Shown: positions 2,197 through 22,833 of the stretch, piece by piece
How the letters are laid out: each line of letters begins with the position of its first letter
Numbering within the stretch: the stretch's first letter is position 1
Assembly (NCBI GenBank): GCA_017993615.1
Contig: JAGOMJ010000006.1
Location: 1,128-65,127 of the forward strand
Source of the DNA: Smithella sp.
Lineage (GTDB): Bacteria > Desulfobacterota > Syntrophia > Syntrophales > Smithellaceae
Length of the DNA: 64,000 bases
Direction: 5' to 3'
Notes under the pieces: generated by a model
What the model saw: only the letters and a program-made list of their open reading frames with translations
Databases searched by the model: none
What the model was told of the DNA's origin: nothing
Position numbers and translations under genes: made by a program

Positions 2197-3321
2197 TCAT
2201 GCTTCAGTGCGGCGGCCATCCGGCATTTTTTTAAAGAAAATACTGATCGCCGCCGGCAGATAAAAAGCGGACAGGATGACCGCGGCAAAAACAACCGGTT
2301 GAAACACTTGACGATCCTGGAGCCCCTGAATCAGGCAGGCAATGATCAACAAGATTCCGGTGAAATTATGAACGCGAATGGTCAGTAAATTCGCAGGCGC
2401 CAGTTTGTCCGGTTCGTTGCCGTATGCTTTCATGATTAAAAATGCGCGAACGGACCACGGCAGGGTCAGCAAGCCCAGATAAATCCAGTAGCCTGCCATG
2501 TTCAGAGGAGGTGCAAGCAGAATGACCGCGTAGGCCAGCATCATTGCCACGCCGTAAAACCGGGCTGCCGCCTTTAGGCCGAATCGCACCACCAGCGTGT
2601 TTTTACCGGCCGCGGCATCGTCGAATCTGTCCGGGATTTCATTGATGACGATCATAGCAAACATCATGAACCCCAGGGGCAACAGGATCCAGAAAATCTC
2701 CCACGAAAAAGAAACAGTCTGCACGACATAGGCGCCCATGCCGATGGTAAAGCTGAAATTGATCAACTGGGAGAATTCTCCCAGGCCGCGATATCCGTAC
2801 CGGATGGGCGGTGCCGTGTAAAAATACGAACACCCCACGCCGAACAGGCCGAAAACGATGATCCACCAGGTCTGCGCCGCGCACAGATAGAGGCCGATCC
2901 CGATGGTGATCAGGTAAAATAACGTGAACATCAGGCGCATGTGCCCGTGTTTGATCAGGCCGCCGGTCAGGGTCCCGCTGCCGCCGGTATAAGGATTTTC
3001 CCGGCGTTCACCGCCTTGATCGACGGCGGCGTGATAATCAAAATAGTCGTCGGTCATGTTCAGGGCGATGTGATTGAGCGTAACGCCCAGCACCGTGAGA
3101 AAGAAAAACCATCGGTTCATGAGACCGGTCTGCACCCAGGCGCCGACAGACCCCAGGATAGCCGGAAGAAAACTGGCGGGAACAAAATGATAGCGAAACG
3201 CAATCCACCAGACACGGAACGATTTTCTTTGGGCTCCGGCAAACGACCGGGTATCGGGAATGGAAACGGATAAAACGTCCTGCGACCTGACTTCTGTTAA
3301 GAAAGGTTTTTTGTTTTTCAC
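2197..3321 (-). CDS. UbiA-family (MenA-like) aromatic prenyltransferase
   Basis: 374-aa polytopic protein with the first Asp-rich motif NMTDDYFDYHAAVD and a second motif, NEIPDRFDDAAAGKNT. The start is GTG at 3321 with no clear SD, so the start is uncertain. Confidence 0.8.
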   Translation of the reverse strand: MKNKKPFLTEVRSQDVLSVSIPDTRSFAGAQRKSFRVWWIAFRYHFVPASFLPAILGSVGAWVQTGLMNRWFFFLTVLGVTLNHIALNMTDDYFDYHAAVDQGGERRENPYTGGSGTLTGGLIKHGHMRLMFTLFYLITIGIGLYLCAAQTWWIIVFGLFGVGCSYFYTAPPIRYGYRGLGEFSQLINFSFTIGMGAYVVQTVSFSWEIFWILLPLGFMMFAMIVINEIPDRFDDAAAGKNTLVVRFGLKAAARFYGVAMMLAYAVILLAPPLNMAGYWIYLGLLTLPWSVRAFLIMKAYGNEPDKLAPANLLTIRVHNFTGILLIIACLIQGLQDRQVFQPVVFAAVILSAFYLPAAISIFFKKMPDGRRTEA

Positions 3322-3923: not shown

Positions 3924-5666
3924 CTATTCGTAGTAGTGTATTTTTGTCAGAACTTCATTGATCGTGGTCAAACCGTGTTCAACCTTTTCACAAGCGTCTT
4001 CAATGAGGGTTTTCATGCCGTTTTCGCGGGCAACGATGCAAAGGTCCTGATCGGAATGATACAGGGGGATGGTCCGTCTCAGATTGCCGTCGACCCGCAG
4101 GAATTCGAAAATCCCTATCCGTCCCTTATAGCCCGTAAAGCCGCATGCTTCGCACCCTTTCCCCTTATAGGATATTCCGATTTTGAGCTTTTTCAGATAA
4201 GGGTAGTTCTCAAAAAGATACTGCGGTATTTCGAATTCCACCCGGCAGTTTTCACATATTTTTTTCACAAGCCTTTGTGCAAGGATGGCATTCAGAGCGG
4301 AACTGATCAGATAAGGTTCTATGCCCAGATCCCTTAAACGGGAGATGGTTGCAATGGTATCATTGGTATGGACCGAGCTGAGTACCAGATGGCCGGTCAG
4401 CGCCGCCTTCGTGGAAATTTGAGCGGTCTCGGAATCCCGAACTTCGCCGACCATGATGACGTCGGGATCCTGCCTGAGAATCGAACGCAGAGCCGCGGCG
4501 AACGTAAACCCGACTTTTTCATTGACCGGCACCTGCTTGATGTTCTCCAGCTCGTATTCGATCGGGTCTTCGATCGTCACGACGCTCTCCGATTCCAGCG
4601 AAAGCTGTGTCAGCAGGGAATAAAGCGTGGTGGTTTTTCCGCTGCCTGTGGGACCGGTTACAAACAGCATCCCCTGAGGTTTGTTGAGCATCTCCAGAAG
4701 ATCTCTGATGATGTTATCCGGCATCCCCAGCTTGCTCAGCGGGATGAGTCCCTTGACCGAATCCAGAATCCGTATGACAATGGTTTCTCCGTGAGCCGAC
4801 GGGATGGTGGAAACACGCAGATCGATCATGCGTCCTTCATATTTGACGGTACTCCTGCCGTCCTGCGGCATCCGGCGGATGGTAATGTTCATGGTGGATA
4901 TGATCTTGATCCGGGAGGTCATCGCCTCCTGATACGTTTTGGATATTTTGAGAACGGTGGACAGGTCCCCGTCTATTCTGTAGCGGACACTGACATATTT
5001 TTCATGGGGCTCTATGTGGATGTCCGTTGCCCTTGATTTGACGGCATTGACCAGAATCAGGGTCACCAATTTGACAATGGGCGGTTCTTCTCCTATTTTA
5101 TAGAGGTCATCGGCTCTGAGCGCGCTTTCATCTTCCTCTTCCATTTTATGGAACTCGATACTTTTATCCAGATTGAACTGCATTTCGCCGTCCAGATGGA
5201 TATCGTTCAACGGCTTCCATATTTTTTCGATGGAGCAATAGCCGTAATTTTTCTCAATGGCTTTCATGAGCGACGATTCTGTGGTCAGCAGGGGGGTAAT
5301 ATTTTTTCCGGTGAGAAATTTCACTTCATCGATGGTGGAATAATCAAGAGGATTGACCATGGCCAGGAAAAGCGTATTCCCCGACACATCGGTCGGCAGG
5401 ATCTTTTTCTTAACGGCCATGGTCATACTGACCAGTTTAAGAAATTTTTCCGGCACAACCACGCCATCACAATCGATATAGGAAATAGAAAATTTCTTTC
5501 GGAAAGCCTCGACAAGCTGTGCTTCCGTGATGTAACCGAGCTCAATAAGCGTCTGACCGATCATCTTGCCGCTTTTCTTCTGAAGGGCAAGCGCACTCAT
5601 CAACTGGCCTTCGGAAACAATGCTGTCCTCGATTAAGATTTCACCCAGCTTTTTTCTTTTATTCAT
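3924..5666 (-). CDS. GspE/PilB-family secretion/pilus ATPase with N-terminal MshEN-type (c-di-GMP-binding-like) domain
   Basis: Walker A GPTGSGKTT, Asp/His boxes and a C-terminal CENC...CEAC tetracysteine motif. The N-terminus (KLGEILIEDSIVSEGQLMSALALQ, then MIGQTLIELGYITEAQLVEAF) fits the tandem MshEN motif RLGxxLVxxGxIxxxxLxxALxxQ. Confidence 0.9.
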   Translation of the reverse strand: MNKRKKLGEILIEDSIVSEGQLMSALALQKKSGKMIGQTLIELGYITEAQLVEAFRKKFSISYIDCDGVVVPEKFLKLVSMTMAVKKKILPTDVSGNTLFLAMVNPLDYSTIDEVKFLTGKNITPLLTTESSLMKAIEKNYGYCSIEKIWKPLNDIHLDGEMQFNLDKSIEFHKMEEEDESALRADDLYKIGEEPPIVKLVTLILVNAVKSRATDIHIEPHEKYVSVRYRIDGDLSTVLKISKTYQEAMTSRIKIISTMNITIRRMPQDGRSTVKYEGRMIDLRVSTIPSAHGETIVIRILDSVKGLIPLSKLGMPDNIIRDLLEMLNKPQGMLFVTGPTGSGKTTTLYSLLTQLSLESESVVTIEDPIEYELENIKQVPVNEKVGFTFAAALRSILRQDPDVIMVGEVRDSETAQISTKAALTGHLVLSSVHTNDTIATISRLRDLGIEPYLISSALNAILAQRLVKKICENCRVEFEIPQYLFENYPYLKKLKIGISYKGKGCEACGFTGYKGRIGIFEFLRVDGNLRRTIPLYHSDQDLCIVARENGMKTLIEDACEKVEHGLTTINEVLTKIHYYE

Positions 5667-5693
5667 AATGTTTGAGATATCTGATTAAGTTGC

Positions 5694-5702
5694 ATTATAG
5701 CA
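5694..5702 (-). promoter_or_regulatory. Candidate extended -10 promoter element (TGcTATAAT) for the PilB-like ATPase gene
   Basis: The minus strand reads TGCTATAAT about 28 nt upstream of ATG 5666. The -35 is weak. Sequence match only. Confidence 0.3.
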
Positions 5703-6417
5703 CGTCTTTAAAATATTAAAAATGAATAAAATTATACGATTTTCCGGCGCATGGCTTTGACGGATATGTCGTCTGGAATGATCAAAGGCTGTTTTCGAAC
5801 ATCGATATGCAAAATCCGTATGGACAGATCCCCCGCAGCAAAACCGCAATAAGGCAAATTGGTCTTCAAGACCGGACGCATTGCCTTCCAGAAACTTCAC
5901 GATCCCTGCGGGTTTCTTCGTTTCTGAAAAACAGCGGGCGTTTGAAATGTCCTTAATGTAAACCTATTGTAAAAAACCCGAAAACGCTTCTTTTTCTGAA
6001 GCCTTTAGCGTCGGGATAGCTCAATGAAAATGCCTGTTTCCCTTCCGGGTATTTCTTATCGTGAATACCCCTGGACTCAAATTCGATGCCCGGTTATGAA
6101 ATTTGTTCCCCGTGGAAATTGGACAGACCTGTCAGGATGTTATTGAGGGCATTTCATCCTTCGCTTAAATGTGCGAAGATATTGACGAATCTAGAATTTC
6201 AGAAGGTTATTTCCACTCCATGCTCTCTTGATTATGATATTTTTTTATTCCATGACAAAATTTTTATTGACTTTACCCATCAATCATACTATTGACCGAA
6301 CATTCAATTCAAATGATTAATTTGAGGATATCGCGTTTTTTGTGAAAGATTATTCATAAAGAGGTCGTTTGCGTGCTCTTTATAGAATATATTTACTAAG
6401 TTGTTATGCAATAATAC

Positions 6418-6460
6418 CAAGCAGTACGTTGTTTCGCGTTCATGATCAAGCGGTACGTTG
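6418..6460 (+). repeat. 14-nt direct repeat pair CAAGC(A/G)GTACGTTG, starts 29 nt apart, in the leader of the 6.6-18 kb cluster
   Basis: 6418-6431 caagcagtacgttg and 6447-6460 caagcggtacgttg differ at one position. They lie about 185 nt upstream of ATG 6643 in AT-rich non-coding DNA. Confidence 0.35.
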
Positions 6461-6642
6461 CCTCCTATCTGAAGAGACCCGGCATTCAACCAGAGATTAG
6501 TAAAAATCTAAACCAGATTCGTCCATGAAAATCTGTCCGGATAACGGATCGGATTTGACGACGAAAAGTGTCAGCCGATAGGTGTCATCTATTGGCATTC
6601 AAACTCTTTAGAATAACTGCATCATTAAGAGGAGGAATACAC

Positions 6643-7596
6643 ATGAAAAGCATGTCTGTTTCGTCAGCAAGTGAGCAGAGGGGGCATCAAAGCGATTCAA
6701 CGGACCCCCTACCGGTAAACGCTCAGGATTTTTTCATTCAGAGCCACAAGGGATTCAATTACTACCTGATCGATTTGAATACAGCCGAATGGAATCGTCT
6801 CGGAGATATCATTCGGGGATGTGAAGCGGTTGAAAATGATTGCTGGAAGGCGCAGGAGGAATTCTCAACCTATCTGCGGAAATGCGATGTTCTTAGCTAT
6901 GTGGAAAAAAACGGCCGGATCGTCGCCTTTGATGCCGTGTCCATTCTCAACAGCGGTCCCCATTGCGTGTACAATAATGAAGAAACGATGGTGCTCAAAG
7001 CATTCCGGGGAAGAGACCTTGCTCAACGTCTGGTCATTATGACGGTGGAATGGCACCTCACGAAAGCCGCTTCAATCAAGAACAAAGATTATTTCATTTT
7101 TACGTCCATCTCGGCTAATCCCGCAGTGGTCAACCGGTATTTCAATAAATCATGGCTGCGGGTACTGTTTGACTCCTCTTTCTCCCCGTCGCCCGCATTA
7201 ATCGCTCTGAAGGAAGAGTATTGCCGTAAATACGGGATCGGACTTGTGGATCAGAGCTATCCTTTCTGCCTGAAGAACATGTTTCCCGGCTCAAACGGTT
7301 TTGATCCCAATGATCCGAAGTATCAATTCTCGCCCCATGTCCGGGCAAACATGCCGGCGGATTTCGAACATATGGACAGGGGCGACGCATTTGCCTTTAT
7401 GCTGATGATCCCCATGAAAATCGTACGACTGGTCACCTTCGTTCTGATGATCAAATGCTTCGGCAAGGAATACTTTTCCAGCAGGGGTGTCGGACTGTTC
7501 AGCAGCAGAAGACCCCTTATCCCGTCTTTTACCGACCGGCGGGTCCCGGGTCTGTCCGGAGAACCTTTTTCAGTCAAAACTGCGGATCACGGATAA
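6643..7596 (+). CDS. Hypothetical protein, possibly a GNAT-fold acyltransferase with a C-terminal hydrophobic segment
   Basis: Track ORF 6568..7596 trimmed to ATG 6643, preceded by AGGAGG. The segment ETMVLKAFRGRDLAQRLV resembles GNAT motif A (R/Q-x-x-G-x-A/G). A hydrophobic stretch (AFAFMLMIPMKIVRLVTFVLMI) sits near the C-terminus. The family call is weak. Confidence 0.45.
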   Translation: MKSMSVSSASEQRGHQSDSTDPLPVNAQDFFIQSHKGFNYYLIDLNTAEWNRLGDIIRGCEAVENDCWKAQEEFSTYLRKCDVLSYVEKNGRIVAFDAVSILNSGPHCVYNNEETMVLKAFRGRDLAQRLVIMTVEWHLTKAASIKNKDYFIFTSISANPAVVNRYFNKSWLRVLFDSSFSPSPALIALKEEYCRKYGIGLVDQSYPFCLKNMFPGSNGFDPNDPKYQFSPHVRANMPADFEHMDRGDAFAFMLMIPMKIVRLVTFVLMIKCFGKEYFSSRGVGLFSSRRPLIPSFTDRRVPGLSGEPFSVKTADHG

Positions 7597-7681
7597 AATG
7601 ATTTGCAGAAGAATATACGATATTCAAAACTAAACGTAAGAGAATTAACGTTTGAAACAACCAGTAAATGAGGAGGCTCCA

Positions 7682-9055
7682 ATGATTAAGTTACAAAAGG
7701 GTTATTTAAAAATTTCCTGCGTCTTGATGTGCCTATTGGCCCTTATCTTCGCGACGCGGACATGGGCCTGTGATGTGGCCGTTGTCTCCGGCAAGGTCAC
7801 CACAGACGGCAAACCGCTGATCTGGAAAAACTTTGACAACTCGTCAAGCGACCGCCAGCAGGTTGCCTACTTCCCCGCCAAAAAGTCCGGTCCCGGCGGA
7901 TATTTAATGGTCTACCGGTTTGAAAACGGGATGAAACTGCTGAACAACGGCTCGGCGATCACTCCTTCCGGCGGCGTCAATGAATCAGGTTTTGCCATTG
8001 CCGGCACGTCCGTGTACCAGGATTATAATCTTATGGCGGAACCGGTGAACATCAATACCGTTCTTATGGAGGAAGCCCTGGCGACATGTACCACGCTCGC
8101 GGAGTTTGAATCACTGCTCAAAAGATGGCCTTACTATCACTGGGGCACCGTTATCAGCGCCAACTTCGTTGTCATCGACGCCAAAGGCGGAGCCGCACTG
8201 TATGAATGCTTCACCGGCCATCTAAACACCGGCCTCAACCTGATGCAGTTCAGAAAGAACGATGCCAACACGGGCAAGATCACCAATCAGTATGGATGGA
8301 CGCTCAAACGGGCTCAGAGCAACTTCATCGGATTCCACATTATGACCAATTACAATTACTACATTCCCTGGAACGTGGGACAGGATCGCAAGTATAGAGC
8401 CGAAGCCCTCCTGACCCAGTTGGCAACAGAGAAGCGGATCAATTACCGCACCGTTATGCGAGAGGTGGCCAAGGACGTTGTCGGCAAGCAGGTCCAGACG
8501 GATCTTTCCAGCGAGACCAATTACAGCACAACCTATTGCCTCAGCCGCAATGCCACCCGTAGCTCGATCGTCGTCAGGGGCGTTGCATCCGGAGACAACC
8601 CGCGCCTGGCCACCATGTGGGTCAACCTCGGAGAGCCCTCTGTAGGTGTTTTCGTCCCGTTTTTTGCCGCCGCCAGGGGAACATCGGAACTGGCCCGGGT
8701 GGATACGTATGCCAACGGTGCCTGGAGAGATTACGATGATTCCTGTCTGCTCAATCAGGCCATCAGCGCGAGGGAAACCTACGGCAGTCTCATTTATTCA
8801 TCGAATGAAGGAGATGTCATCTGGGGCATGTACGATAACTACATCAATAAGGTCGAACTGGCCAAGGTTCAGCAGTGGACATTCCAGATCGAGGATACGA
8901 TCATTGATAATGCCGAATCGTTCCTGTCTTCTCTCCAAAGCAACCCGGCACAGATTACCGCTTTCAATCTAAAGGATTTTGCGGATTACTGCGCGGATTA
9001 TGCTTATGAAAACTTCGAGACCGGCTCTGCGGATGCCTTTCCCTGGCAATACTAA
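7682..9055 (+). CDS. Exported Ntn-hydrolase, peptidase C69 (dipeptidase)-like, with Cys nucleophile at the predicted signal-peptide cleavage site
   Basis: Trimmed to ATG 7682, after GAGGAGG. A signal peptide (MIKLQKGYLKISCVLMCLLALIFATRTWA) is followed by CDVAVVSGKVTTDGKPLIWKNFDN. This parallels the C69 N-terminus pattern C-T-T-x-x-V-G-K-x-x-S-x-D-G-S-x-x-I-A-R-N-E-D. The length (about 460 aa) is typical of the family. Confidence 0.65.
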   Translation: MIKLQKGYLKISCVLMCLLALIFATRTWACDVAVVSGKVTTDGKPLIWKNFDNSSSDRQQVAYFPAKKSGPGGYLMVYRFENGMKLLNNGSAITPSGGVNESGFAIAGTSVYQDYNLMAEPVNINTVLMEEALATCTTLAEFESLLKRWPYYHWGTVISANFVVIDAKGGAALYECFTGHLNTGLNLMQFRKNDANTGKITNQYGWTLKRAQSNFIGFHIMTNYNYYIPWNVGQDRKYRAEALLTQLATEKRINYRTVMREVAKDVVGKQVQTDLSSETNYSTTYCLSRNATRSSIVVRGVASGDNPRLATMWVNLGEPSVGVFVPFFAAARGTSELARVDTYANGAWRDYDDSCLLNQAISARETYGSLIYSSNEGDVIWGMYDNYINKVELAKVQQWTFQIEDTIIDNAESFLSSLQSNPAQITAFNLKDFADYCADYAYENFETGSADAFPWQY

Positions 9056-9146
9056 TATGATGATGGACGAGGGGCACTGCGAAGATCCCTCCCGTGGTCA
9101 TATTTTTGAAAGAGTCCCCTGAAGACGTATTCGATGACGGAATTAG

Positions 9147-10175
9147 ATGGACAAGACAGCCAAGATATCAAACTCTCAAGCGGTGATGGGGGATATGGAT
9201 TTTCCACATGAGGAAAGGGCACGCCCTTTCCTCATGAATACCAAACTATGGAAACAGCTGCTCCCTCTGGCAGTCTCCGGCGCAATCCTCCTTTATTTGT
9301 TCCGGCACATTGATATCCGCATGTGTTTCAATGCCATGCTGACCGCGAATGTGTCCCTGTATATTCCCTCTTTGATTGCCCTCATTCTGATCACCTTTCT
9401 TCTGGACACACAGAATCTGGCTGAGACGCTGAAGCATTTTCATTACCCCCTTTCCTGGAAAAATGCCTTCACTCTGCGCGGCGTCACCTATCTCATCATG
9501 ACGATCGACTACAGTGTGGGCATGGGAGTTCTGATCTACTATCTGAAAAACCATCTCGGCATCCCGGTCATGCGATCAACGGGACTGATGACCTTTTTCA
9601 ACGGCATCACCCAGAAGGCTCTGGTTTACATGGCCATCATCGGCTTGGTGATTCTTTCTCCGGCCTCGGGATTGCTGCGTAATTTGCTGATCTTCTTCAT
9701 CGGCTTTGCCCTGCTGGATATTCTTTTTATTATCGTGTTGAAAAAACTGCCGTCCCGCGGTCTGGCCCTCAAAATTAAAAGCATGAACCTTCTGAAGGTC
9801 TTTCACGAGGCTCCCTGGCGAACCTACGGTGTCCTCATCTTCTGGCGCATTCTCTACTATGCCTGCTTTGTCGCCTTCTTCTATATTGCGGTCAGGGCAT
9901 TCAACATGCAAATCCCGCTGGTTGCGCTCATCGCTTATGTCCCGATCATTCTCCTGGTCATCAGTCTGCCCATCGCTCCGGGCGGATTCGGCACGGCACA
10001 GGCGACGATGCTCCTTCTCTTCAAGGATTACGGGACGCCCCTGAATATCATGGCTTTCGGACTGATCTACACCACCTCCATCCTGGTGTTGCGTTACCTG
10101 ATCGGCCTGCTCTATGCGAAACATATCAAGGGTCTTCCTGCGGGAGAGGACAGCACAAGTGAACAAAGGAATTGA
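9147..10175 (+). CDS. Flippase-like membrane protein (lysyl-phosphatidylglycerol synthase TM-region / MprF flippase-domain family), stand-alone
   Basis: About eight hydrophobic helices. The conserved late motif LPIAPGGFGTAQATMLLLF matches the P-G-G-x-G-x-x-E/Q signature of the LPG_synthase_TM (UPF0104) family. No fused synthase domain. Confidence 0.7.
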   Translation: MDKTAKISNSQAVMGDMDFPHEERARPFLMNTKLWKQLLPLAVSGAILLYLFRHIDIRMCFNAMLTANVSLYIPSLIALILITFLLDTQNLAETLKHFHYPLSWKNAFTLRGVTYLIMTIDYSVGMGVLIYYLKNHLGIPVMRSTGLMTFFNGITQKALVYMAIIGLVILSPASGLLRNLLIFFIGFALLDILFIIVLKKLPSRGLALKIKSMNLLKVFHEAPWRTYGVLIFWRILYYACFVAFFYIAVRAFNMQIPLVALIAYVPIILLVISLPIAPGGFGTAQATMLLLFKDYGTPLNIMAFGLIYTTSILVLRYLIGLLYAKHIKGLPAGEDSTSEQRN

Positions 10176-10300
10176 GGATGATCGGCAGGCCTGCACCATA
10201 TCCCCTTGATCAATCAGTGCCCCGTCTTCAAAAGGAACCTAGAGGAAACCTGTATCTCATCAGCGCCCTCCGTAAAAGAAAGAATGGCCGCGACCAAACG

Positions 10301-11110
10301 ATGTCCCGGGCATTGCATCTGGCGGTTGTGATGCTGGTCACCGCCTTCAGTATTCAAACCGCTGTCGCACAAGAGCATTTTTTACATGCTCTCGGTCATT
10401 TTGAAACACTATCGACGACGCAGGGCATTCTCATTGCGGCACCGCATGGAACCTATGACATCCGCACGGATGTCCTGGCCAAAGATGTGGCCCGGACGCT
10501 CGGTGCAGGCTATGTCATCGCCGGAGGTTTTGCGTCGCCATCTCCGCGCATCAACGTCAACCGCCCCTCGGAGGGTGCAGGACATACGTGCGAAAAAGAA
10601 CGGCGTACCGAAAGGGCGAGGGATGTTTACGACCAATACGCTCGTTTGATTGACAAGATCCGTGACGGCAAGCCGTTGCGGCTTTATGTCGAAATTCACG
10701 GACACACCAGCATCCCTTTTCTCAACCGGCTTGAAATCGCCACCACAGGAATCACAACGGAAGAAGCCCGGCGCCTGAAAGACCGCTTTCCCGCTTTCCT
10801 TGCGCAGGCAAAGGCAGCCTATCCGGCCTACCCCGATCTGGAGCTGCGCATAGAGCCCCTGGATAAGATCTACTTCGGAGCACGCTGCAACAAAACGACC
10901 GGATATCTCTCCACACGGAACATGGAACGTGCGCTTCACATGGAGATCCCCCGCCCGGCGCGAACTCCTGAGGCGTTGAAAGCCACCGCCGCGCTTGTCA
11001 GTTCCATTGTGCGCGCCACCATGACCATTTCAGAATCAGCCTCCGGTCCGGGACCCAAGAGGGCAACTTCCGATGCAGACAAGAAATCGTCAGGGGGACC
11101 GGCGCGATGA
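10301..11110 (+). CDS. Exported amidohydrolase-like protein (N-formylglutamate amidohydrolase / poly-gamma-glutamate hydrolase-like pattern)
   Basis: Track ORF 10172..11110 trimmed to ATG 10301, where a signal peptide begins (MSRALHLAVVMLVTAFSIQTAVAQ). ILIAAPHGTYDIRTDVLAKDVARTLGAGYVIAGG, RINVNRP and LYVEIHGH resemble the metal-binding and catalytic strands of the FGase/PGA-hydrolase fold. The stop overlaps the next start (ATGA). Confidence 0.5.
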   Translation: MSRALHLAVVMLVTAFSIQTAVAQEHFLHALGHFETLSTTQGILIAAPHGTYDIRTDVLAKDVARTLGAGYVIAGGFASPSPRINVNRPSEGAGHTCEKERRTERARDVYDQYARLIDKIRDGKPLRLYVEIHGHTSIPFLNRLEIATTGITTEEARRLKDRFPAFLAQAKAAYPAYPDLELRIEPLDKIYFGARCNKTTGYLSTRNMERALHMEIPRPARTPEALKATAALVSSIVRATMTISESASGPGPKRATSDADKKSSGGPAR

Positions 11111-12312
11111 CGAAACGGTATACTCGGAAAATGACGTTTAATGACCGGGCATTTGTGGTGCTCAATCAAATCAGCCCCCCCACGGTCAACCAATTTATTT
11201 TCGACGGTGAAGGGACGCTCGATCCGGAAAAATGGCGCAGGGCGGCGGATGCGGCTTCCGAGGCCAATCCCGGTACCCGTCTGGTCCTCAGGGGTCACCT
11301 GAGCTGGAGCCGATGGGTCGACTCGGGAATAAACATGCGCGTCCGCGAAGTGGACGGCAGGAACTGGGACGGACGGGGCCCGGAGAATGAACCATTACTC
11401 GAAGAGTCTCTCCCCTATCGGGGAAACCCCACCTGCGAGATTGTTCTGATCCAGGGTCCGACCCCGAGAGTCGCATTCCGCTCCCATCACGCCGTGTGTG
11501 ACGGACGGGGCACGCTGTTCTGGGCCGAGGATGTTTTCCGGACCCTGCGCGGCGAAGCTGTCGTCGGTTCAACCTCAAACATCACGGATGTGGAGCTTTG
11601 TAAGAGTTTTCAGAATCAGTACCGGACGCCTTTCCCCGCGGAGCATATCGCCCCCACCGGACGGGCAAAAGGCAATGATACCGGCGTGACCTGGAGACGC
11701 TGTTCCCTCAAGGGCAAGATGCCCCATCTGCTGGCACAATGCGCCCGTCTGGCAGCGGAAGAAGCCTGGCGACATGGCGAAGGGGTTGTCCGTTTCGGTA
11801 TCCCCGTGGATTTGCGACATCGCAGACCGGAACTGCGCAGTACAGCCAATCTATCTTTTGCCCTGTATACGGAGGTCAAAAAGGAAACGAGCCCGGACGA
11901 CATCGCCCGGGACATCGCTTTGCAAATCAGTCGATGCGATGAATGCAGACTGACCAAGGGAGACGAGCGTCTGGAATACATGCCCCTGTGGATGATGCGA
12001 TACAAGGCAAAAAATATCATTCGCGAGCGGCACCGGCAAGGACTTTACAGTCTTTCGGGCATCCTGTCCAACCTGGGCCGGATTAATCTTAACCGGTTTT
12101 GCGGCGGGGGGTTCACAGCACGGGCATTCTGGATTATTCCGCCGGCTGCTGAATACTATCCGTTTTTTATGGTCATGACGGGCTATGAAGGGGGGTCAGA
12201 TCTGACGATTTCCATGCCCAAAGTTCTGGCCAGTGAAGGCCGGCTTGAAAACACCCTGAAGAGAATCGTTCATGGACTGGAAGGGACAAACCAAAGGGAG
12301 GATACGATATGA
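11107..12312 (+). CDS. Stand-alone condensation-domain-like acyltransferase (HHxxxDG superfamily), copy 1
   Basis: 401 aa. HHAVCDG is at residues 127-133 (nt 11485-11505). The size and motif position fit NRPS C-domain / PapA5 / WS-DGAT-type CoA-dependent acyltransferases. ATGA overlaps on both sides. Confidence 0.7.
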   Translation: MTKRYTRKMTFNDRAFVVLNQISPPTVNQFIFDGEGTLDPEKWRRAADAASEANPGTRLVLRGHLSWSRWVDSGINMRVREVDGRNWDGRGPENEPLLEESLPYRGNPTCEIVLIQGPTPRVAFRSHHAVCDGRGTLFWAEDVFRTLRGEAVVGSTSNITDVELCKSFQNQYRTPFPAEHIAPTGRAKGNDTGVTWRRCSLKGKMPHLLAQCARLAAEEAWRHGEGVVRFGIPVDLRHRRPELRSTANLSFALYTEVKKETSPDDIARDIALQISRCDECRLTKGDERLEYMPLWMMRYKAKNIIRERHRQGLYSLSGILSNLGRINLNRFCGGGFTARAFWIIPPAAEYYPFFMVMTGYEGGSDLTISMPKVLASEGRLENTLKRIVHGLEGTNQREDTI

Positions 12313-13505
12313 CTTACTCGCGGCAACTGAGTTCCACCGAGCGGGCATATGTGGTGTACAATGAATGCTGTCCGCCGTTTCTCAACCAGTTATTTTGGGA
12401 AGGAACCGGATATTTCGACCTGCCCAAATGGCGGGAAGCCGTAAAAATCGCATCCGAGGCCAACCCGGGTAGTCGCGTCGTTGTCAAGGGTATCACGGCC
12501 TTTGCCCGTCTCGTCGATACCGGAAAAACCCCGCCGGTGATCGAGGTGGATGGAACCCATTGGGACGGTCTTGGTCCGGAAGGCGCTCCGGCCAAGCTCT
12601 CAGAAACCCTGAATCCTTTTGAAGGCCCGACATCCGAAGTTGTTCTGATCCACGGCAACCCCCTGCGCGTTGTCTTTCGCACGATGCATGCCACCATGGA
12701 CGGCCGGGGCACCGTGACCTGGGTGGAAGATATTTTCCGCGGTCTGCGCGGCGAAGCTCCCTTGGGATCGGATTCGCGCATCACTGAATTTGAGATTGCG
12801 GCAACCTTTCAGAAGCAAGGACGCAAAGGGCCGGTTCCGGAATACATCGCTCCCACCGGTATGCCTCAAGGAGATCAGCCCGGCGTAATCTGGCGCCGAC
12901 GGCGCTACCCCGGACGCTACCACAATGTCCTGGGCCAGGTGGCCACTCTCCTGGCCGGAAAAGCCTGGCAGTATCAGGACGGTAAGGTGCGCCTGGCTAT
13001 TCCGGTGGATATGCGCGCCAGGGTTGAGGGCCTGCGTTCGACAGGGAATTTGACCAATCTGATTTACGTGGAAATCAATCCCTCCACAACACCGGCTGAC
13101 GTGAGTCAGGACATCAAGCGTCAGCTGGAAGCGCGGCATGACGGCATGATTTACTGGGGCGACCGGCCGATTCGCTTTCTACCCCTCTGGTTGCTCAAAA
13201 AACTGATTAAAAGCAATATCGCCACCAAGAACCGCACGGGCCGCTACCCCAACTCCGGGGTCCTCACCAATATGGGACGGATTCCGGTTTTCAGCGGAGG
13301 GGGCTTTGAAGGAAAATATACCTGGGGCATTCCCCCGGGCCAGGAATACTCCCCCATTTTTATCGGCATGTGCAACAGTGATGATGATATGACGATGATC
13401 TATTCCATGCCGAACGTTCTGGCCGGCGGCGGCCGTCTGGAAACACTGATGGACCATATTCAACAGGGACTGGTTGCCTCGAAGGCGGACCGGAAGAAAG
13501 GATGA
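12309..13505 (+). CDS. Stand-alone condensation-domain-like acyltransferase, copy 2 (paralogue of 11107..12312)
   Basis: 398 aa and colinear with copy 1 (ASEANPG, EVDG..WDG.GPE, RG..G, IAPTG, RSTGNL, GGGF). The motif here is MHATMDG: the catalytic second His and the Asp are kept, and the first His is replaced by Met. Confidence 0.7.
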   Translation: MTYSRQLSSTERAYVVYNECCPPFLNQLFWEGTGYFDLPKWREAVKIASEANPGSRVVVKGITAFARLVDTGKTPPVIEVDGTHWDGLGPEGAPAKLSETLNPFEGPTSEVVLIHGNPLRVVFRTMHATMDGRGTVTWVEDIFRGLRGEAPLGSDSRITEFEIAATFQKQGRKGPVPEYIAPTGMPQGDQPGVIWRRRRYPGRYHNVLGQVATLLAGKAWQYQDGKVRLAIPVDMRARVEGLRSTGNLTNLIYVEINPSTTPADVSQDIKRQLEARHDGMIYWGDRPIRFLPLWLLKKLIKSNIATKNRTGRYPNSGVLTNMGRIPVFSGGGFEGKYTWGIPPGQEYSPIFIGMCNSDDDMTMIYSMPNVLAGGGRLETLMDHIQQGLVASKADRKKG

Positions 13506-13514
13506 TACGACATC

Positions 13515-16500
13515 ATGTGGATTTCTGATACCTCAATCAAGCGGCCTGTTCTCGCCACCATGTTCATTCTCGCTCTCGTCGTTCTGGGCCTGGTCAGCTA
13601 CCCGTCAATCGGCGTCGACCTCTTTCCCAAGGTGGAATTTCCCCTCGTCAACATCACGACCGGTCTGGCCGGCGCAAGCCCCGAGATTATGGATGTCGAT
13701 GTGACGGACAAAATCGAAGAGGCGGTCAGTTCGATTAACGGGGTAAAGACGATCCACTCGCTGAGTATTGACGGGGTGTCCAGTGTCATCGTGGAGTTCG
13801 AATTGGAGCGGGACATCGATCTTGCCGTCCAGGATGTTCGGGAGCAGATCTCCGCCGTCCGTTCACAGCTTCCGGATGACATCATCGAGCCGGTCATCCA
13901 GAAGGTCAACATCGATGCTAGCCCTGTCCTGTGGCTGGCCCTGACCGGGGACAAGTCTCAACGCGAACTCTCAACCTATGTGGATGAAAGCCTCAAGGAG
14001 AAGTTACAAAAAATCCAGGGTGTCGGCGCCCTCTCCCTGGCCGGCATGCAGAAACGCCAGATCCGGGTCTGGCTTGACAGCAACAAACTGGCGGCCTACG
14101 GGGTTTCACCAGGCGATGTCGCGGCTGCCTTGAAAAGGGAAAACATCGAATTGCCGGGCGGGCGTATCGAGAGCTTGACGAAGGAATTCTCCATCAAAGT
14201 CAAGGGGTCTCTCAAAGATGTCTCCGCCTTTAATGATCTGATCATCGCCTCCTATGCCGGCGTTCCCGTGAGATTGAGAGATATCGGCAGAGTGGAGGAC
14301 GGAACCCAGGAAAGACGTTCCTACGCACGGTTCAACGGCATCTCCGCCGTCGGTATCGGTATCCAGAAGCAGACCGGTACCAACACCGTTCAGGTTGTGG
14401 ACCGTGTCAAAGAGGAAGTCGAGCGCATCAAGAAAAGTCTGCCGCCGGGCATGGATATCCGGATCGCCTTCGACCAGTCCGTGTTCATCAAACAATCCAT
14501 GGATCAGGTTCAAGAACACCTGATTCTGGGATCGATCCTGGCCATTATCGCTGTGTTCATCTTCCTGAGAAACTTCCGCACGACCCTGATCAGCGCGGTC
14601 GCCCTGCCTGTTTCGATCATTTCAACCTTTGCGATCATGAGGATATTCGATTTCACCTTTAACAATCTGACGATGCTGGCCCTGACCCTGTCTGTCGGTA
14701 TCCTTATTGATGATGCCATTATCGTCATCGAGAATATCTACCGCCACATCGAAGACGGGATGTCTCCGAGAGAGGCCGCGTCCTTTGCCACGGACGAGAT
14801 CGGTCCCGCGGTCATGGCCACCACGCTCGCCATTGTGGTCATATTCCTGCCTGTCGCTTTCATGAAAGGCATCATCGGACGTTTCTTCATGCAGTTTTCG
14901 CTGACCGTCGTCTTTTCCATCCTCGTTTCCCTGCTCGTGTCGCTCACCCTCACGCCCATGCTCTCGTCCCTTCTTCTCCACCCGCGGAAAAAAGAATCCT
15001 TGGACAGTGAACGCCCGGGCACGGTGATGGCGCGGATCGGGCAGACGCTGGAGCGCGGATATAAAAAAATTGAAGAGGCCTACCGCCCCATCCTGACATT
15101 CAGTCTTGACCATCGCCGGGCTGTGCTGATGAGCGCCCTCATCCTCTTTATTTTCAGCCTCTGGATTACCCGGTTCATCGGCAAGGAATTCAAACCGGGA
15201 GAAGACCAGAGCCAGTTTATGATCCGGATGGAATCGCCCATCGATTATTCCGTGGAACACGCCGGGGCGATGTTCAGTCAAGCCGAGAAGATTGTCCGGA
15301 ACAGAACCGAGGTGACATCGGTCTTCTATGGTCAGGGAGCGGGTCAGGGGCGACTGTCACAAATCAATCAGGCATTCATCCAAACCAGCCTGAAACCGCG
15401 GTCTGATAGAGACAAATCCCAGTCAGAGATTATGGCGGAATTGCGGAAGGAATTTACCGCGATCCCCGGGCTGAAAACCACCATCGAAGAGGTTGCCATT
15501 CTCGGAGGCGGGATCCGGAATGTCCCCGTTCAATATTCCATCAGCGGCGGATCCATCGACGAGCTCAGAAAATATGCCAAGCAAATCGTCGGTGAACTTT
15601 CCAAAATAAAGGGGCTCGTGGATATCGACACCTCCATCGAGGCAGGGAAACCGGAGTTGAGTGTCTACATTGACCGGGAAAAGGCAACGAATATGGGAGT
15701 CAGCGTGGCAGCCGTCACCGAAGCGGTGAATCTTCTCATGTCCGGCGAGGTCGAGGTCACAAAATTCAAAGATACAGCAAAGGGGAGACGATACGATGTC
15801 CGGATGAGGCTGGACGCCAAAGACAGGATGAGCCCGTCCGATATCGGCAGACTCTATGTCCGGGCCGTGAATGGTGAGCTGGTCAGATTAAGTGACATCG
15901 TCACCGTCGAGGAAGGGGGCGGTCCGAGCAGCATTTCGCGCAAAGACCGGCAGCGCACGATCTGGATATTCGCCAATCTCCAGGACAAGCCGCTGGGCGA
16001 GGCCATGCAGGAAATTGACGCCATATCCGCCAGGATTCTGCCGGCTGGATACGTTGCCGGTTACTCCGGAGAGGCCGAAGAAATGGGCAAGTCCTTCAAG
16101 TACCTTATGTTTGCCCTGCTGCTGGGAATTTTGCTGGCCTATATGGTGCTGGCCTCGCAGTTTGAAAGTCTTCTTCATCCCGTGACCATTCTCCTGTCCA
16201 TGCCCCTGTCGTTTATCGGCGCTTTTGCGGCTCTCCTGATCTTCGGTAAATCGCTGAGCATCGTGAGCTTCATCGGCCTGGTGCTTCTCATGGGTCTTGT
16301 CAAGAAGAATGCTATCCTGCTGGTCGATTTTACGAACACACTGCGTGAGCGGGGCCTGTCACGGCGGGAGGCCATCCTTCAGGCAGGACCGGTCCGACTG
16401 CGCCCCATCCTGATGACCACGTTTGCCATGGTGTTCGGTATGCTGCCTGTCGCCCTCGGTATCGGAGAAGGAGCCGATCTGCGAGCGCCCATGGGCATTA

Positions 16501-16673
16501 CGCTGATCGGAGGGCTTCTCACTTCTCTGTTCTTAACCCTGGCCGTTGTCCCGGCGGCCTATGACATATTCGACGACTGGAAAGAAAATATGATCCGCCG
16601 GTTAGGCAGCCGGGGAGCCAGTCCCTGGATCCGGCCTTTCGGAAAGAATAAAAAAGAGAATAACAATAACTAG
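13515..16673 (+). CDS. RND efflux transporter permease (AcrB/HAE-type), no cognate adaptor or OMF gene adjacent
   Basis: 1052 aa with 12-TM RND architecture. It is clearly paralogous to 26747..29854 (MW..DTS.KRPV.ATM...LVVLG.VSYPSIGVDLFPKV.FP). It starts 9 nt after the preceding stop. Confidence 0.95.
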   Translation: MWISDTSIKRPVLATMFILALVVLGLVSYPSIGVDLFPKVEFPLVNITTGLAGASPEIMDVDVTDKIEEAVSSINGVKTIHSLSIDGVSSVIVEFELERDIDLAVQDVREQISAVRSQLPDDIIEPVIQKVNIDASPVLWLALTGDKSQRELSTYVDESLKEKLQKIQGVGALSLAGMQKRQIRVWLDSNKLAAYGVSPGDVAAALKRENIELPGGRIESLTKEFSIKVKGSLKDVSAFNDLIIASYAGVPVRLRDIGRVEDGTQERRSYARFNGISAVGIGIQKQTGTNTVQVVDRVKEEVERIKKSLPPGMDIRIAFDQSVFIKQSMDQVQEHLILGSILAIIAVFIFLRNFRTTLISAVALPVSIISTFAIMRIFDFTFNNLTMLALTLSVGILIDDAIIVIENIYRHIEDGMSPREAASFATDEIGPAVMATTLAIVVIFLPVAFMKGIIGRFFMQFSLTVVFSILVSLLVSLTLTPMLSSLLLHPRKKESLDSERPGTVMARIGQTLERGYKKIEEAYRPILTFSLDHRRAVLMSALILFIFSLWITRFIGKEFKPGEDQSQFMIRMESPIDYSVEHAGAMFSQAEKIVRNRTEVTSVFYGQGAGQGRLSQINQAFIQTSLKPRSDRDKSQSEIMAELRKEFTAIPGLKTTIEEVAILGGGIRNVPVQYSISGGSIDELRKYAKQIVGELSKIKGLVDIDTSIEAGKPELSVYIDREKATNMGVSVAAVTEAVNLLMSGEVEVTKFKDTAKGRRYDVRMRLDAKDRMSPSDIGRLYVRAVNGELVRLSDIVTVEEGGGPSSISRKDRQRTIWIFANLQDKPLGEAMQEIDAISARILPAGYVAGYSGEAEEMGKSFKYLMFALLLGILLAYMVLASQFESLLHPVTILLSMPLSFIGAFAALLIFGKSLSIVSFIGLVLLMGLVKKNAILLVDFTNTLRERGLSRREAILQAGPVRLRPILMTTFAMVFGMLPVALGIGEGADLRAPMGITLIGGLLTSLFLTLAVVPAAYDIFDDWKENMIRRLGSRGASPWIRPFGKNKKENNNN

Positions 16674-16685
16674 GAGGTATCCGTT

Positions 16686-18002
16686 ATGATGAAGACGGCC
16701 ATATTGCTGTATCACTTTTTCAAATCCTTAATTGAAATCCACCTCAGCGCCCGTCTCCCCTATGGACTCCAGAGGAAACTATGCGAAAGACGCTTGATTC
16801 GCTCCATCCGGCATGCTTATGACCATGTCCCCTTCTATCGCCAGAAATACGATGCGGCGGGAGTGGACATTACATCTATCCGGTCCGCCGATGACATCAA
16901 ACGGCTCCCTTTCGTCACCAAGGAAGAAATCCGGCAGAATTTTCCCGACGGGATCGTGGCACGCGGCGTCAACAGAGAGGCGTGCCGCTATTCGGCCACC
17001 ACCGGATCCACAGGCAGGTCCCTGCCGTTCATCTTCACTCAGGCGACCTATGCCTTCTACGTCGCCCTGGGGGTCCGCATGTACACAATGATCGGATACC
17101 GCCCATGGCACAAAATGGCCTACATCAAATATACCGACCTGAACTATACCCGTCTGGGCCCTTTCTTCCGGGCCGTCCATATCAAATCGACGATCCCCGT
17201 CGAAGAACAGATCGCGCAGCTCAGGAAGGCGGGGGCCGACCTCATCATCGGTTATGCCTCTCTGGTGTACGAGATCGCGAGAAACGCCACCCCTGATGAC
17301 CTGAAGGATATCCGGCCCAAGTTCATCGGAATCAACTCGGAGCTTTCGACTGAGGCCCAGCGGACCTTCATCTCCGAAACCTTCGGCTGTCCCGTCTACG
17401 ATGAATACTCGACGGAAGAGACCTGGATGATCGCCTCCCAGTGCCGGTGCAACAACTACCATATCTTTACGGACAATGTATGGGTGGAATTCATCGACGC
17501 GAAAGGTCAGGAGGTTGCCCCGGGAGACATGGGAGAAATCGTGCTGACGACTACCCGCAGCCCTGCCATGCCGTTCATTCGCTACCGTATCGGCGACATG
17601 GGAAGATTCAGCACCGCTGAATGTCCCTGCGGCATGGGGTTCCCGCTACTCCAATCCTTCGAAGGCAGGGCCGACGATTGCTTTATTCTTCCGAGCGGAA
17701 AATTCGTCTCCTCGCTGAAACTTCTGAACACCTTCACCATGTATATCAAGAAGTACCTTCATCTGCTGGAGGAGTTCAAGGTGACACAGGTGCATAGCGA
17801 TCTAATCGTCATCAAAATCGTCAAAGGAAATCAGTATGACAGCGCCCATCTCGAAGAACTGCTGGCCGATTTGCGTCGTCTGCTTGACGATTCCGTCTCG
17901 ATCAAAACCGAATTCGTCGATGTTATCGAGAAAACGGACGGCATCAAGCGCAAAGCCATTGAATCCCTTGTCAGTCAGAAGCCGACCGGTTCTCCTTCCT
18001 GA
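16686..18002 (+). CDS. Phenylacetate-CoA ligase (PaaK)/CapK/F390-synthetase-family adenylate-forming enzyme
   Basis: AGGAGG upstream. HVPFYRQKYDAAGVD, LPFVTKEEIR, SATTGSTGRSLPF (P-loop-like AMP motif), YSTEE and IRYRIGD are the family signatures. Confidence 0.85.
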   Translation: MMKTAILLYHFFKSLIEIHLSARLPYGLQRKLCERRLIRSIRHAYDHVPFYRQKYDAAGVDITSIRSADDIKRLPFVTKEEIRQNFPDGIVARGVNREACRYSATTGSTGRSLPFIFTQATYAFYVALGVRMYTMIGYRPWHKMAYIKYTDLNYTRLGPFFRAVHIKSTIPVEEQIAQLRKAGADLIIGYASLVYEIARNATPDDLKDIRPKFIGINSELSTEAQRTFISETFGCPVYDEYSTEETWMIASQCRCNNYHIFTDNVWVEFIDAKGQEVAPGDMGEIVLTTTRSPAMPFIRYRIGDMGRFSTAECPCGMGFPLLQSFEGRADDCFILPSGKFVSSLKLLNTFTMYIKKYLHLLEEFKVTQVHSDLIVIKIVKGNQYDSAHLEELLADLRRLLDDSVSIKTEFVDVIEKTDGIKRKAIESLVSQKPTGSPS

Positions 18003-22212: not shown

Positions 22213-22833
22213 ATGGAAAGACTGGAAAGAAAAGAACGCGAATTCAACATGCGCCGGGCTGAGATTCTGGAAAAAGCGGAAAAAATATTTTCCGTCAAGG
22301 GGTACCATAATGTCACCATGGCGGAAATCGCCAGCGCCTCCGGATTTTCCACGGGATCTCTCTACCAATTTTTTGAGGGCAAGGAAAATCTTTACTCATC
22401 CATGATCAGCGAAAAACTCAATTTGATGTATGAAAAAACAAAAAAGGCAACCGATCGGGCGGATAACGTACTCGATAAAATCGAGATGCTGGTTGATGCT
22501 CAGCTGCGGTTTTTGGAAGAGAATGCCGATTTCTGCCGTTTATTCATCAAGGGCGAGAGCACCGCTCTGTCGGAAGCCATGACATCCATGCGGGAAAAAA
22601 TCATCAAGGATTATTTTAAATATATCGGTTTTATTGAAAACTTGCTGAAAGAAGGGATTCAGCAAAAACGGTTAAAAAACCTGCCGGCCGGCGACATGGC
22701 TCAATCCCTGGTTTATTTGATCAGGGCGGTATCCATGGAATGGATGTTATCATTGAAAAACGAGTCCCCCTATTCCAAAAAGGGGTTCATTCTGGACATT
22801 TTTTTTAATGGGGTTAAAAATCATGATCGGTAA
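22213..22833 (+). CDS. TetR/AcrR-family transcriptional regulator
   Basis: N-terminal helix-turn-helix RRAEILEKAEKIFSVKGYHNVTMAEIASASGFSTGSLYQFFEGKENLY. It lies immediately upstream of the efflux genes. Confidence 0.9.
   Translation: MERLERKEREFNMRRAEILEKAEKIFSVKGYHNVTMAEIASASGFSTGSLYQFFEGKENLYSSMISEKLNLMYEKTKKATDRADNVLDKIEMLVDAQLRFLEENADFCRLFIKGESTALSEAMTSMREKIIKDYFKYIGFIENLLKEGIQQKRLKNLPAGDMAQSLVYLIRAVSMEWMLSLKNESPYSKKGFILDIFFNGVKNHDR

Follow-up and report, generated by a model that had tools for sequence, protein, structure and literature searches.

The 64,000-nucleotide stretch of DNA analyzed here, from an uncultured Smithella sp. (Syntrophia, Desulfobacterota) (the window; positions 1,128 to 65,127 of contig JAGOMJ010000006.1, assembly GCA_017993615.1) carries eight co-directional open reading frames (ORFs), g1 to g8, at 6643-18002. 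A sequence-only reading of this block had proposed that it is an undescribed system for an envelope lipid or lipo-amino acid. Our analysis supports the description as an undescribed system for a core of five families together with a variable exporter, and, in keeping with that reading, no characterized pathway of this composition was found in the literature. The block comprises the following genes:

g1, 6643-7596, plus strand: single-domain, membrane-associated GNAT acyltransferase, 317 amino acids (aa)
g2, 7682-9055 (alternative TTG start at 7652), plus strand: predicted exported Cys N-terminal-nucleophile (Ntn) hydrolase, 457 aa
g3, 9147-10175, plus strand: stand-alone MprF-type flippase-like membrane protein, 342 aa
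g4, 10301-11110 (alternative starts at 10172 and 10178), plus strand: exported protein of an unannotated family, 269 aa
g5, 11107-12312, plus strand: predicted stand-alone condensation-fold acyltransferase, paralogue type 1, with the motif HHAVCDG, 401 aa
g6, 12309-13505, plus strand: predicted stand-alone condensation-fold acyltransferase, paralogue type 2, with the motif MHATMDG, 398 aa
g7, 13515-16673, plus strand: HAE1-type RND permease embedded without an adaptor, 1,052 aa
g8, 16686-18002, plus strand: predicted adenylate-forming ligase of the PaaK/F390-synthetase type, 438 aa

The genes are tightly packed, exactly as the sequence-only reading had laid them out. Start and stop codons overlap by 4 nucleotides (nt) as ATGA between g4 and g5 (11107-11110) and between g5 and g6 (12309-12312), and the RND gene g7 is flanked by gaps of 9 nt and 12 nt. 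Terminator prediction gave 15 candidates inside the block against 12.9 expected, which is not above chance, and we counted this lack of an excess, along with the overlapping and nearly abutting genes, in favor of one operon. Promoter prediction added nothing of use. The best-supported starts of the first two genes are 6643 for g1, whose ATG is preceded by an AGGAGG ribosome-binding site, and 7682 for g2; the start of g4 is ambiguous, both 10301 and 10178 being possible. The block is preceded by the following region:

5667-6642, no strand assigned: AT-rich noncoding leader or promoter region upstream of g1, 976 nt

This leader, too, agrees with the roughly 1 kb of AT-rich noncoding DNA described from the letters alone: it contains no long ORF, and its GC content is 39%, compared with 54% for the block and 49% for the window. 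Neither the leader nor the rest of the window has a match in Rfam, and conservation of the leader is partial and seen in only one related locus (L024). The g5 protein is 98% identical to one named 'MAG TPA: Smithella sp.', and a 21-kb neighborhood is shared with many digester metagenome contigs and with GCA_035396225.1.

That the block constitutes a functional unit is supported by the recurrence of its core in distant phyla, irrespective of which of two families served as the seed of the search. One survey covered one genome per GTDB species and took the condensation-like (C-like) family of g5 and g6 as its seed; every ORF of the resulting loci was then searched with the eight proteins of the block. 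For the reciprocal survey, the g1 family was the seed, metagenome contigs were the source, and the 23 loci of at least 12 kb were counted. The former yielded 65 species-level loci, among which 36 have at least two C-like paralogues (two to four), 25 have at least two of g1, g2, g3, and g8, and 16 have all four of these within 10 kb. In the latter, C-like genes were found in 17 of the 23 loci, g3 in 18, g8 in 16, and g2 in 11. The core loci of the first survey come from Smithella and other Desulfobacterota, from Spirochaetota/Leptospirales, and from Syntrophomonadaceae and other metagenome-assembled genomes (MAGs) of Bacillota, with one further MAG labeled Solirubrobacterales. The core thus delineated consists of a PaaK-type ligase, a GNAT, a flippase-like protein, usually an Ntn hydrolase, and two to four anciently diverged C-like paralogues, and it is present in at least three phyla of bacteria from anaerobic digesters. 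In the Spirochaete loci, the genes follow one another on one strand in the order ligase, Ntn hydrolase, flippase-like protein, CapA-like protein, DegT, GNAT, and four C-like genes.

The proposal that the eight genes form a single system therefore stands for five families only: g4 (in 6 of the 65 C-like-seeded and 4 of the 23 g1-seeded loci) and the embedded RND pump are restricted to the Smithella clade, and we reject the eight-gene set as one conserved unit.

The two paralogous C-like proteins, g5 and g6, are 44% identical to each other. No curated Pfam model (PF00668, PF16911, or PF03007) matches g5, and g6 yields only a PapA_C match at an E value of 0.08; across 37 C-like relatives, the best match to the Pfam Condensation model is 0.017. 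PapA_C yields values of only 0.06 to 0.08. Likewise, a profile of the g5 family has no sequence-level match to any PDB chain. Structure prediction proved more informative. The AlphaFold2 (AF2) model of g5 (predicted local distance difference test score [pLDDT], 94.6) shows a two-lobed chloramphenicol-acetyltransferase-like fold, and Foldseek retrieved, with a probability of 1.00, AzeD (PDB 8s6l; E = 2e-19; TM score, 0.71) as the best match, together with dozens of condensation (C), epimerization (E), and starter C domains of nonribosomal peptide synthetases (NRPSs), at E values of 2e-19 to 1e-13; the starter C domains CDA-C1 and RzmA-Cs are among the better of these. The motifs HHAVCDG of g5 and MHATMDG of g6 both keep the catalytic second His (H128) and the Asp (D132), and neither residue varies among 37 sequences. 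The modeled fold and the intact catalytic residues place g5 and g6 in the CoA-dependent acyltransferase/condensation fold, and the earlier assignment as paralogous stand-alone condensation-like acyltransferases is borne out at this level.

An exhaustive profile search of 1.84 billion proteins recovered 952 representatives of the C-like family at 50% identity. Many relatives of about 1,000 to 1,400 aa are condensation-adenylation-thiolation (C-A-T) modules, in which the C-like domain lies at or near the N terminus and is followed by AMP-binding and PP-binding domains. This is the position of starter C domains and suggests an NRPS ancestry with a starter-type, i.e., acyl-donor, chemistry for the family. 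Starter C domains typically use acyl-CoA donors. In a neighbor-joining tree, the C-like proteins separate into no fewer than three paralogue clades of ancient origin. Each clade supplies a single gene per locus in the different phyla, which implies that the paralogues carry out distinct, nonredundant reactions. The window holds members of the g5-type and g6-type clades, each of which is kept across phyla, and lacks the third. In agreement with the earlier reading, the block contains no acyl or peptidyl carrier protein, no A-T module, and, by Pfam, no glycosyltransferase or regulator; indeed, Pfam and a search with an A-T query found no carrier protein, PP-binding domain, or A-T module anywhere in the window, and a carrier domain is also absent near most core loci.

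Fused forms of the C-like domain occur in other contexts as well. At a second Smithella locus (L017, 7015-11188; L023, 3950-8149), a protein of about 960 to 970 aa combines a C-like domain with a weak A-T match (47 to 49 bits) and is followed by a stand-alone C-like copy that is about 59% identical to g5. Remote relatives (23 to 32% identity) in Cetobacterium, including C. somerae ATCC BAA-474 (L074-L077), and in Amycolatopsis dendrobii (L069) form part of proteins of about 950 to 1,000 aa that also contain adenylation and carrier domains.

The last gene of the block, g8, matches PaaK structures in the PDB (4r1l at 3.9e-35 and 2y27 at 7e-28), in line with its earlier description as a PaaK/CapK-type ligase, and TTGSTGR and YRIGD motifs are seen in its sequence. 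It also matches PaaK-like natural-product ligases of the AjiA1/NatL2 type in the PDB and, weakly, CapK_C. The NCBIfam DVU_1553 and PaaK models are hit at about 1e-39 to 1e-40, yet all scores fall below the respective cutoffs (137 bits versus 300 for DVU_1553, 133.8 versus 700 for NF041878, and 104.6 versus 646 for TIGR02155). By these comparisons, g8 is a PaaK-type enzyme but no orthologue of PaaK. A catabolic pathway of the phenylacetate type was ruled out: there are no paa genes, and the C-like paralogues would have no role in it.

The first gene, g1, belongs to a tiny family of 63 clusters among 5.8e9 proteins. Its Pfam GNAT match is subthreshold and is weak in 12 of 20 relatives, and the family profile retrieved nothing meaningful among PDB sequences. 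The AF2 model (33 relatives; pLDDT, 81.7) nevertheless consists of a single GNAT domain that Foldseek matches with a probability of 1.00 to many GNATs, such as EctA (6sk1, at 8.8e-6), RimI, and Nat-type acetyltransferases, which upholds the initial call of a GNAT-like protein. The fold has the acyl-CoA-binding β4-α3 region, and an RGRDLAQRL segment is seen in the sequence. At the C terminus, a hydrophobic helix (at about 249-279; hydrophobic segment, 249-274) is followed by an Arg-rich disordered tail. Some related loci (L088-L091) have two tandem g1-type copies and lack g2, and a sub-branch of g1 at about 48% identity (L097-L103) occurs alone in another context, with no other core gene.

The g3 protein, polytopic by hydropathy, is a genuine stand-alone member of the Pfam LPG_synthase_TM family, as had been stated (E = 7.6e-17; 62.1 bits versus a cutoff of 33.4; profile positions 2 to 302 of 302). 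The same reading had entertained an MprF-style route to an aminoacylated lipid. However, Pfam detects no DUF2156 tandem-GNAT aminoacyl-phosphatidylglycerol synthase domain in the block, and g1 has no match to MprF or Fem. Because g1 is a single GNAT and not a tandem-GNAT aminoacyl-phosphatidylglycerol synthase, such a route would have no synthase and is not supported, and g1 plus g3 as a split MprF was ruled out on the same ground.

Stand-alone MprF-type flippase domains have been reported to act on lipid-linked substrates, and the archaeal ones have been linked to glycosylation (PMC5898192). This bears on an alternative in which the block makes an envelope glycoconjugate, with an amino sugar or polymer derived from an aminotransferase receiving N-linked, unusual acyl groups that a CapK-type ligase supplies, being flipped by g3 while attached to a lipid carrier, and being trimmed on the outside. 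A DegT/DnrJ/EryC1 aminotransferase gene directly upstream of g1 in 11 loci, a CapA-like PGA_cap gene in 9 loci, and the weak CapK_C signature of g8 would all fit this scheme. We nonetheless consider it quite unlikely, given that the surveyed neighborhoods have no conserved glycosyltransferase, sugar nucleotidyltransferase, dehydratase, Wzx/Wzy, or polymerase, that RND and MacAB exporters are atypical for glycan export, and that the block in the window itself has neither DegT nor PGA_cap.

Two genes of the block code for proteins with signal peptides. In g2, this peptide is followed by Cys30 at the predicted cleavage site, which is invariant in 16 aligned sequences, and by a K-N-x-D motif about 20 residues farther on, in which D52 is invariant, while 90% or more of the same set retain the K and the N; we take this motif to resemble those of C69 and bile-salt hydrolases. 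The NCBIfam C45_proenzyme model of autoproteolytic acyltransferases/hydrolases matches g2 at 1.6e-10 (40.9 bits, below the cutoff of 85), whereas neither g2 nor its family profile matches any PDB sequence. Among 16 relatives, Pfam AAT matches 9 (best E value, 2e-5) and C69 matches 1. The signal peptide, the Cys at the cleavage site, and the C45 and AAT matches together point to an exported Cys-Ntn hydrolase of clan PB. Of the earlier label, a C69-like Ntn hydrolase with a signal peptide, the export and the Ntn clan hold up; the C69 affiliation is no better than C45, and g2 seems to be at least as much C45-like as C69-like. In some lineages, g2-type hydrolases carry long C-terminal extensions, one of which (L036, 1816-4551) matches bacterial Ig-like (Big_5) domains and ends in a hydrophobic anchor, while another from Bacillota (L048, 13977-15797) consists of unannotated repeats. 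These extensions fit a cell-surface location.

The second exported protein, g4, has a signal peptide ending in AVA|Q and the invariant motifs AAPHG..D, VNRP.E, Y.E.HG, and LH.E.P; in the sequence alignment, the invariant residues include H49, D53, and H133, with E131 conserved as well. It had been likened to FGase/PGA-hydrolase-type amidases, the one of the eight family calls that found no backing: neither g4, nor 33 relatives, nor their profile matched anything in Pfam (including PF05013 and PF05908), NCBIfam, or the PDB sequences. The conserved His and acidic residues would possibly be those of a metal-dependent hydrolase.

That a GNAT occurs together with an efflux system and with exported hydrolases of amides is also what might be expected of a soluble specialized metabolite, such as an antibiotic, siderophore, or signal. 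In this alternative, the ligase and the C-like enzymes would assemble a small amide-linked compound, the GNAT would mask its reactive amine inside the cell, the pump would export the masked form, and the Ntn hydrolase (with g4) would deacylate it outside, as in prodrug and self-resistance schemes. Such an interpretation is hard to reconcile with the conserved MprF-type flippase-like protein and the membrane-tethered GNAT. Further, although NRPS genes adjoin some of the related loci (L009/L010 and L046/48/49), most loci have no NRPS neighbors, and the block has no regulator or immunity gene. The NRPS ancestry of the C-like family and the resemblance of g8 to AjiA1/NatL2, which serve natural-product pathways, are in its favor, and on balance we regard it as unlikely.

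The seventh gene, g7, encodes a full-length AcrB-type permease (ACR_tran at 1e-301, profile positions 1 to 1020 of 1021) whose nearest NCBIfam models are MdtB/MdtC-like. The earlier comparison with lipid pumps of the HpnN/MmpL type did not survive this analysis, since g7 is HAE1-type and scores far below the model cutoffs (38.7 bits versus 751.85 for HpnN and 38.7 versus 874.7 for actII, an MMPL-family model); we ruled out an HpnN/MmpL-type pump accordingly. Within 6643-18002, there is no membrane-fusion adaptor or outer-membrane factor, so that the description of an RND gene lacking both is true of the block; it does not extend to its surroundings, where a complete efflux operon 4.2 kb downstream encodes both:

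22213-29854, plus strand: TetR, OEP, OEP, membrane-fusion protein (MFP), and RND operon (Pfam), candidate partner operon of g7

Pfam identifies in it TetR_N, OEP twice, HlyD_D23, and ACR_tran. The two OEP genes and the MFP gene lie at 22808-26760, and the RND gene at 26747-29854 encodes a pump that is 63% identical to g7. On the basis of this identity to the pump of a nearby efflux operon, we infer that g7 is a recruited duplicate that might be able to use the downstream adaptor and outer-membrane factors.

An HAE1 pump is embedded in the core only in Smithella-clade loci. Across the surveyed loci, an exporter is almost always attached to the core, yet these exporters are nonorthologous, being RND, MMPL, or a combination of HlyD, MacB/FtsX, and an ABC ATPase. 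The MMPL/Patched-type RND pump is confined to one Spirochaete locus (L007). In a deltaproteobacterial locus (L011), an OEP gene and an adaptor gene lie directly beside g1, and an adaptor and an OEP gene likewise lie directly beside the core in L024. Bacillota loci have genes for an HlyD adaptor, a permease of the MacB/FtsX type, and an ABC ATPase immediately after the C-like genes. Export is thus kept by function and not by orthology. RND and MacB pumps take their substrates from the periplasm or the outer leaflet, which fits a prior flipping step by g3.

The restriction of g4 and g7 to the Smithella clade and the existence, close by, of a standard efflux operon whose pump is a paralogue 63% identical to g7 raise the question of a chance juxtaposition, in which a small acyltransferase cluster came to lie next to a multidrug RND pump and exported hydrolases to which it bears no relation. 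We hold this to be highly improbable. The ligase gene g8 lies downstream of the pump gene, which therefore is inside the conserved unit, with 4-nt overlaps and 9- to 12-nt gaps in the block. In addition, three exporter types have been recruited to the same core in three phyla, and the reciprocal co-occurrence holds.

A distant C-like branch (31 to 39% identity) is found directly after an RND pump gene in six loci (L061, L062, L063, L064, L066, and L067). Its hosts are Hahellaceae, Bermanella, Moritella sp. PE36, M. dasanensis ArB 0140, and Moritella sp. JT01, several of which are cultured, and the genes upstream in this gammaproteobacterial branch code for a pair of HlyD adaptors, a protein of about 377 aa that lacks annotation, and an acyl-acid amido synthetase of the GH3 family. 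None of g1, g2, g3, and g8 is present in the branch.

The genes that accompany the C-like gene in this branch, for the GH3 amido synthetase, the adaptors, and the RND pump, raise a further alternative, namely that abundant or toxic carboxylic acids, aromatic or fatty, are activated by the ligase, conjugated with amino acids or amines by the acyltransferases, expelled by the pump, and deconjugated by the exported Cys-Ntn hydrolase, comparable to bile-acid or glycine conjugation and bile-salt hydrolase. The multidrug type of g7 and the origin of the hosts, which are syntrophic acid and alkane degraders from digesters, are compatible with this. In such a scheme, however, the flippase-like protein would be superfluous, and the two to four anciently diverged, locus-specific C-like paralogues favor a defined multistep product; the GH3-RND branch, for its part, is related at only 31 to 39% identity and lacks the four other core families. 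We therefore judge the conjugation of acids for disposal to be rather unlikely.

The reading that we prefer is that the block is one operon for a carrier-protein-free biosynthesis-and-export pathway, the product of which is probably an amphiphilic acyl amide or ester conjugate of the lipo-amino-acid or short lipo-amide class. We advance it tentatively, its probability falling somewhat short of even. It builds on the observed folds and families, the operon-like packing, and the reciprocal co-occurrence across phyla; each chemical step is deduced from family membership, and the nature of the acid and of the acceptor, as well as any borrowing of the downstream adaptor and outer-membrane factors, is likewise deduced rather than observed. 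First, g8 would activate a carboxylic acid to an acyl-adenylate and then probably to an acyl-CoA. The g5 and g6 enzymes would then each form one amide or ester bond, transferring acyl groups from thioester donors to free rather than carrier-bound acceptors, and the membrane-tethered g1 would N-acylate an amine of the intermediate at the inner membrane face. The product might next be flipped to the outer leaflet by g3 and then extracted and expelled by a pump that draws on the outer leaflet or the periplasm, which here would be g7, probably borrowing the downstream adaptor and outer-membrane factors, and in other lineages an MMPL or MacAB-like system. Finally, g2, and in Smithella also g4, would act on an amide bond beyond the cytoplasm, cleaving or remodeling it so that the product matures or is turned over. 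In class, the product may be a lipid, a lipo-amino acid, or a lipopeptide.

The membrane or extracytoplasmic placement of several components, indicated by the hydrophobic helix of g1, the signal peptides of g2 and g4, and the polytopic g3, argues for this reading. Several observations weigh against it. PaaK-type ligases usually activate aryl or short acids and not fatty acids, which leaves the hydrophobic part of the product unexplained. The nearest structural neighbor of g5, AzeD, is a stand-alone dehydratase of the C family, and condensation activity of g5 is thus not guaranteed. Where C-like relatives are part of fused proteins, they work together with carrier domains, and a carrier for g5 and g6 that is encoded elsewhere is possible. 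The pump is of the multidrug (HAE1) type, roughly half of the g1-seeded loci have no g2 gene within 10 kb, and all full-core loci come from uncultured MAGs. Lastly, many related loci have an added DegT aminotransferase gene and the Spirochaete loci a CapA-like one, and these point towards amino-sugar or capsule chemistry.

Set against known systems, the block would be a small NRPS-related acyl-conjugate cluster with dedicated export. By analogy, it would work most like the Oaa fatty-acid-amide pathway, and its overall logic would resemble that of the mycobacterial PapA-FadD-MmpL loci, although it is a member of neither. In the Oaa pathway of gut Clostridia, the free-standing C enzyme OaaC acylates free amines (PMC13310621). 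In both the pathway and the block, a condensation-fold enzyme with ties to starter C domains stands free and has an adenylate-forming partner in a small NRPS-like cluster; as in Oaa, the enzyme of the block would transfer an activated acyl group to a freely diffusing small acceptor. They differ in that Oaa needs an acyl carrier protein and an ANL-type adenylation enzyme, whereas the block, which has no Pfam match to PP-binding or AMP-binding, has no carrier and a PaaK-type ligase instead. Oaa also has a single C enzyme with a (D/H)HxxxDS motif, compared with two to four paralogues with (H/M)HxxxDG in the block type, and it lacks counterparts of the flippase-like protein, the GNAT, the exported Ntn hydrolase, and the pump.

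The mycobacterial PapA/MmpL/FadD loci for sulfolipid-1, polyacyltrehalose, and phthiocerol dimycocerosates combine paralogous stand-alone HHxxxDG acyltransferases, an adenylate-forming enzyme, and an RND-superfamily exporter in the production and export of a multiply acylated amphiphile. In the block, by contrast, the ligase is PaaK-type and not FadD/FAAL, there is no Pks, and the pump is HAE1 and not MmpL; conversely, nothing in those loci corresponds to its GNAT, its flippase-like protein, or its Ntn hydrolase. A layout of synthase, flippase domain, and extracytoplasmic hydrolase is known from MprF together with a periplasmic aminoacyl-phosphatidylglycerol hydrolase (PA0919 or AcvB/VirJ). 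The block shares this layout and the flippase family, but has no DUF2156 synthase, would rely on an adenylating ligase in place of aminoacyl-tRNA, and has a Cys-Ntn rather than an α/β hydrolase. AzeD, like g5, is a stand-alone member of the C-domain superfamily; it is a dehydratase in which the first His is replaced by Pro, belongs to a 35-member 'C_standalone' clade, and works alongside an NRPS (bioRxiv 10.64898/2026.07.17.738954). The g5 family, on the other hand, keeps HH or MH, numbers about 950 representatives at 50% identity, and has no sequence-level match to AzeD.

A bolder version of the preferred reading, which we offer as a doubtful idea, holds that the block makes a lipid-like molecule, destined for the envelope or for secretion, by a previously unrecognized route that needs no ribosomes, tRNA, or carrier proteins. 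Anciently diverged, stand-alone C enzymes of the starter type would use CoA or adenylate donors at the surface of the membrane, and a dedicated MprF-type flippase would hand the product to pumps sampling the outer leaflet. The cluster would have been horizontally exchanged among syntrophic anaerobes (Smithella, Syntrophomonas, and digester Spirochaetes), its product perhaps serving as a biosurfactant or as a surface molecule between species. Among syntrophs, the hosts have a key place in anaerobic digesters and in hydrocarbon degradation, and an exported amphiphile could aid their access to substrates or contact with partners.

More generally, the conserved context offers a first functional hypothesis for four families in which no curated model is passed (g5/g6, g1, g2, and g4). 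If the C-like enzymes indeed act without a carrier, they would extend the repertoire of condensation-domain chemistry, and clusters of this type would be unlikely to be flagged by standard NRPS or polyketide synthase rules. The succession of a flippase-like protein and an outer-leaflet-sampling pump, kept across diderm and Bacillota lineages with three pump types, provides a testable model of how an amphiphile may exit the cell. Because no host of the full core is in culture, the practical value is limited; the gammaproteobacterial branch does have cultured hosts, and the pairing of C-like protein and pump is experimentally testable there.

Elsewhere in the window, a T2SSE/MshEN-type secretion ATPase gene (3924-5666, minus strand) is divergent from the block across the AT-rich gap. 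Two UbiA-family prenyltransferase genes lie at 1397-3321 (minus strand) and 43436-45723 (plus strand); one adjoins a gene for a cytochrome-b5/DUF2231 membrane protein, and the other is followed by one for a radical SAM/SPASM enzyme, contexts that may relate to lipid or quinone modification. At 54713-61596 (minus strand), there are two methyl-accepting chemotaxis paralogues, both with a 4HB-HAMP-HAMP_2 architecture, and a CheA histidine kinase gene is found farther along the strand.

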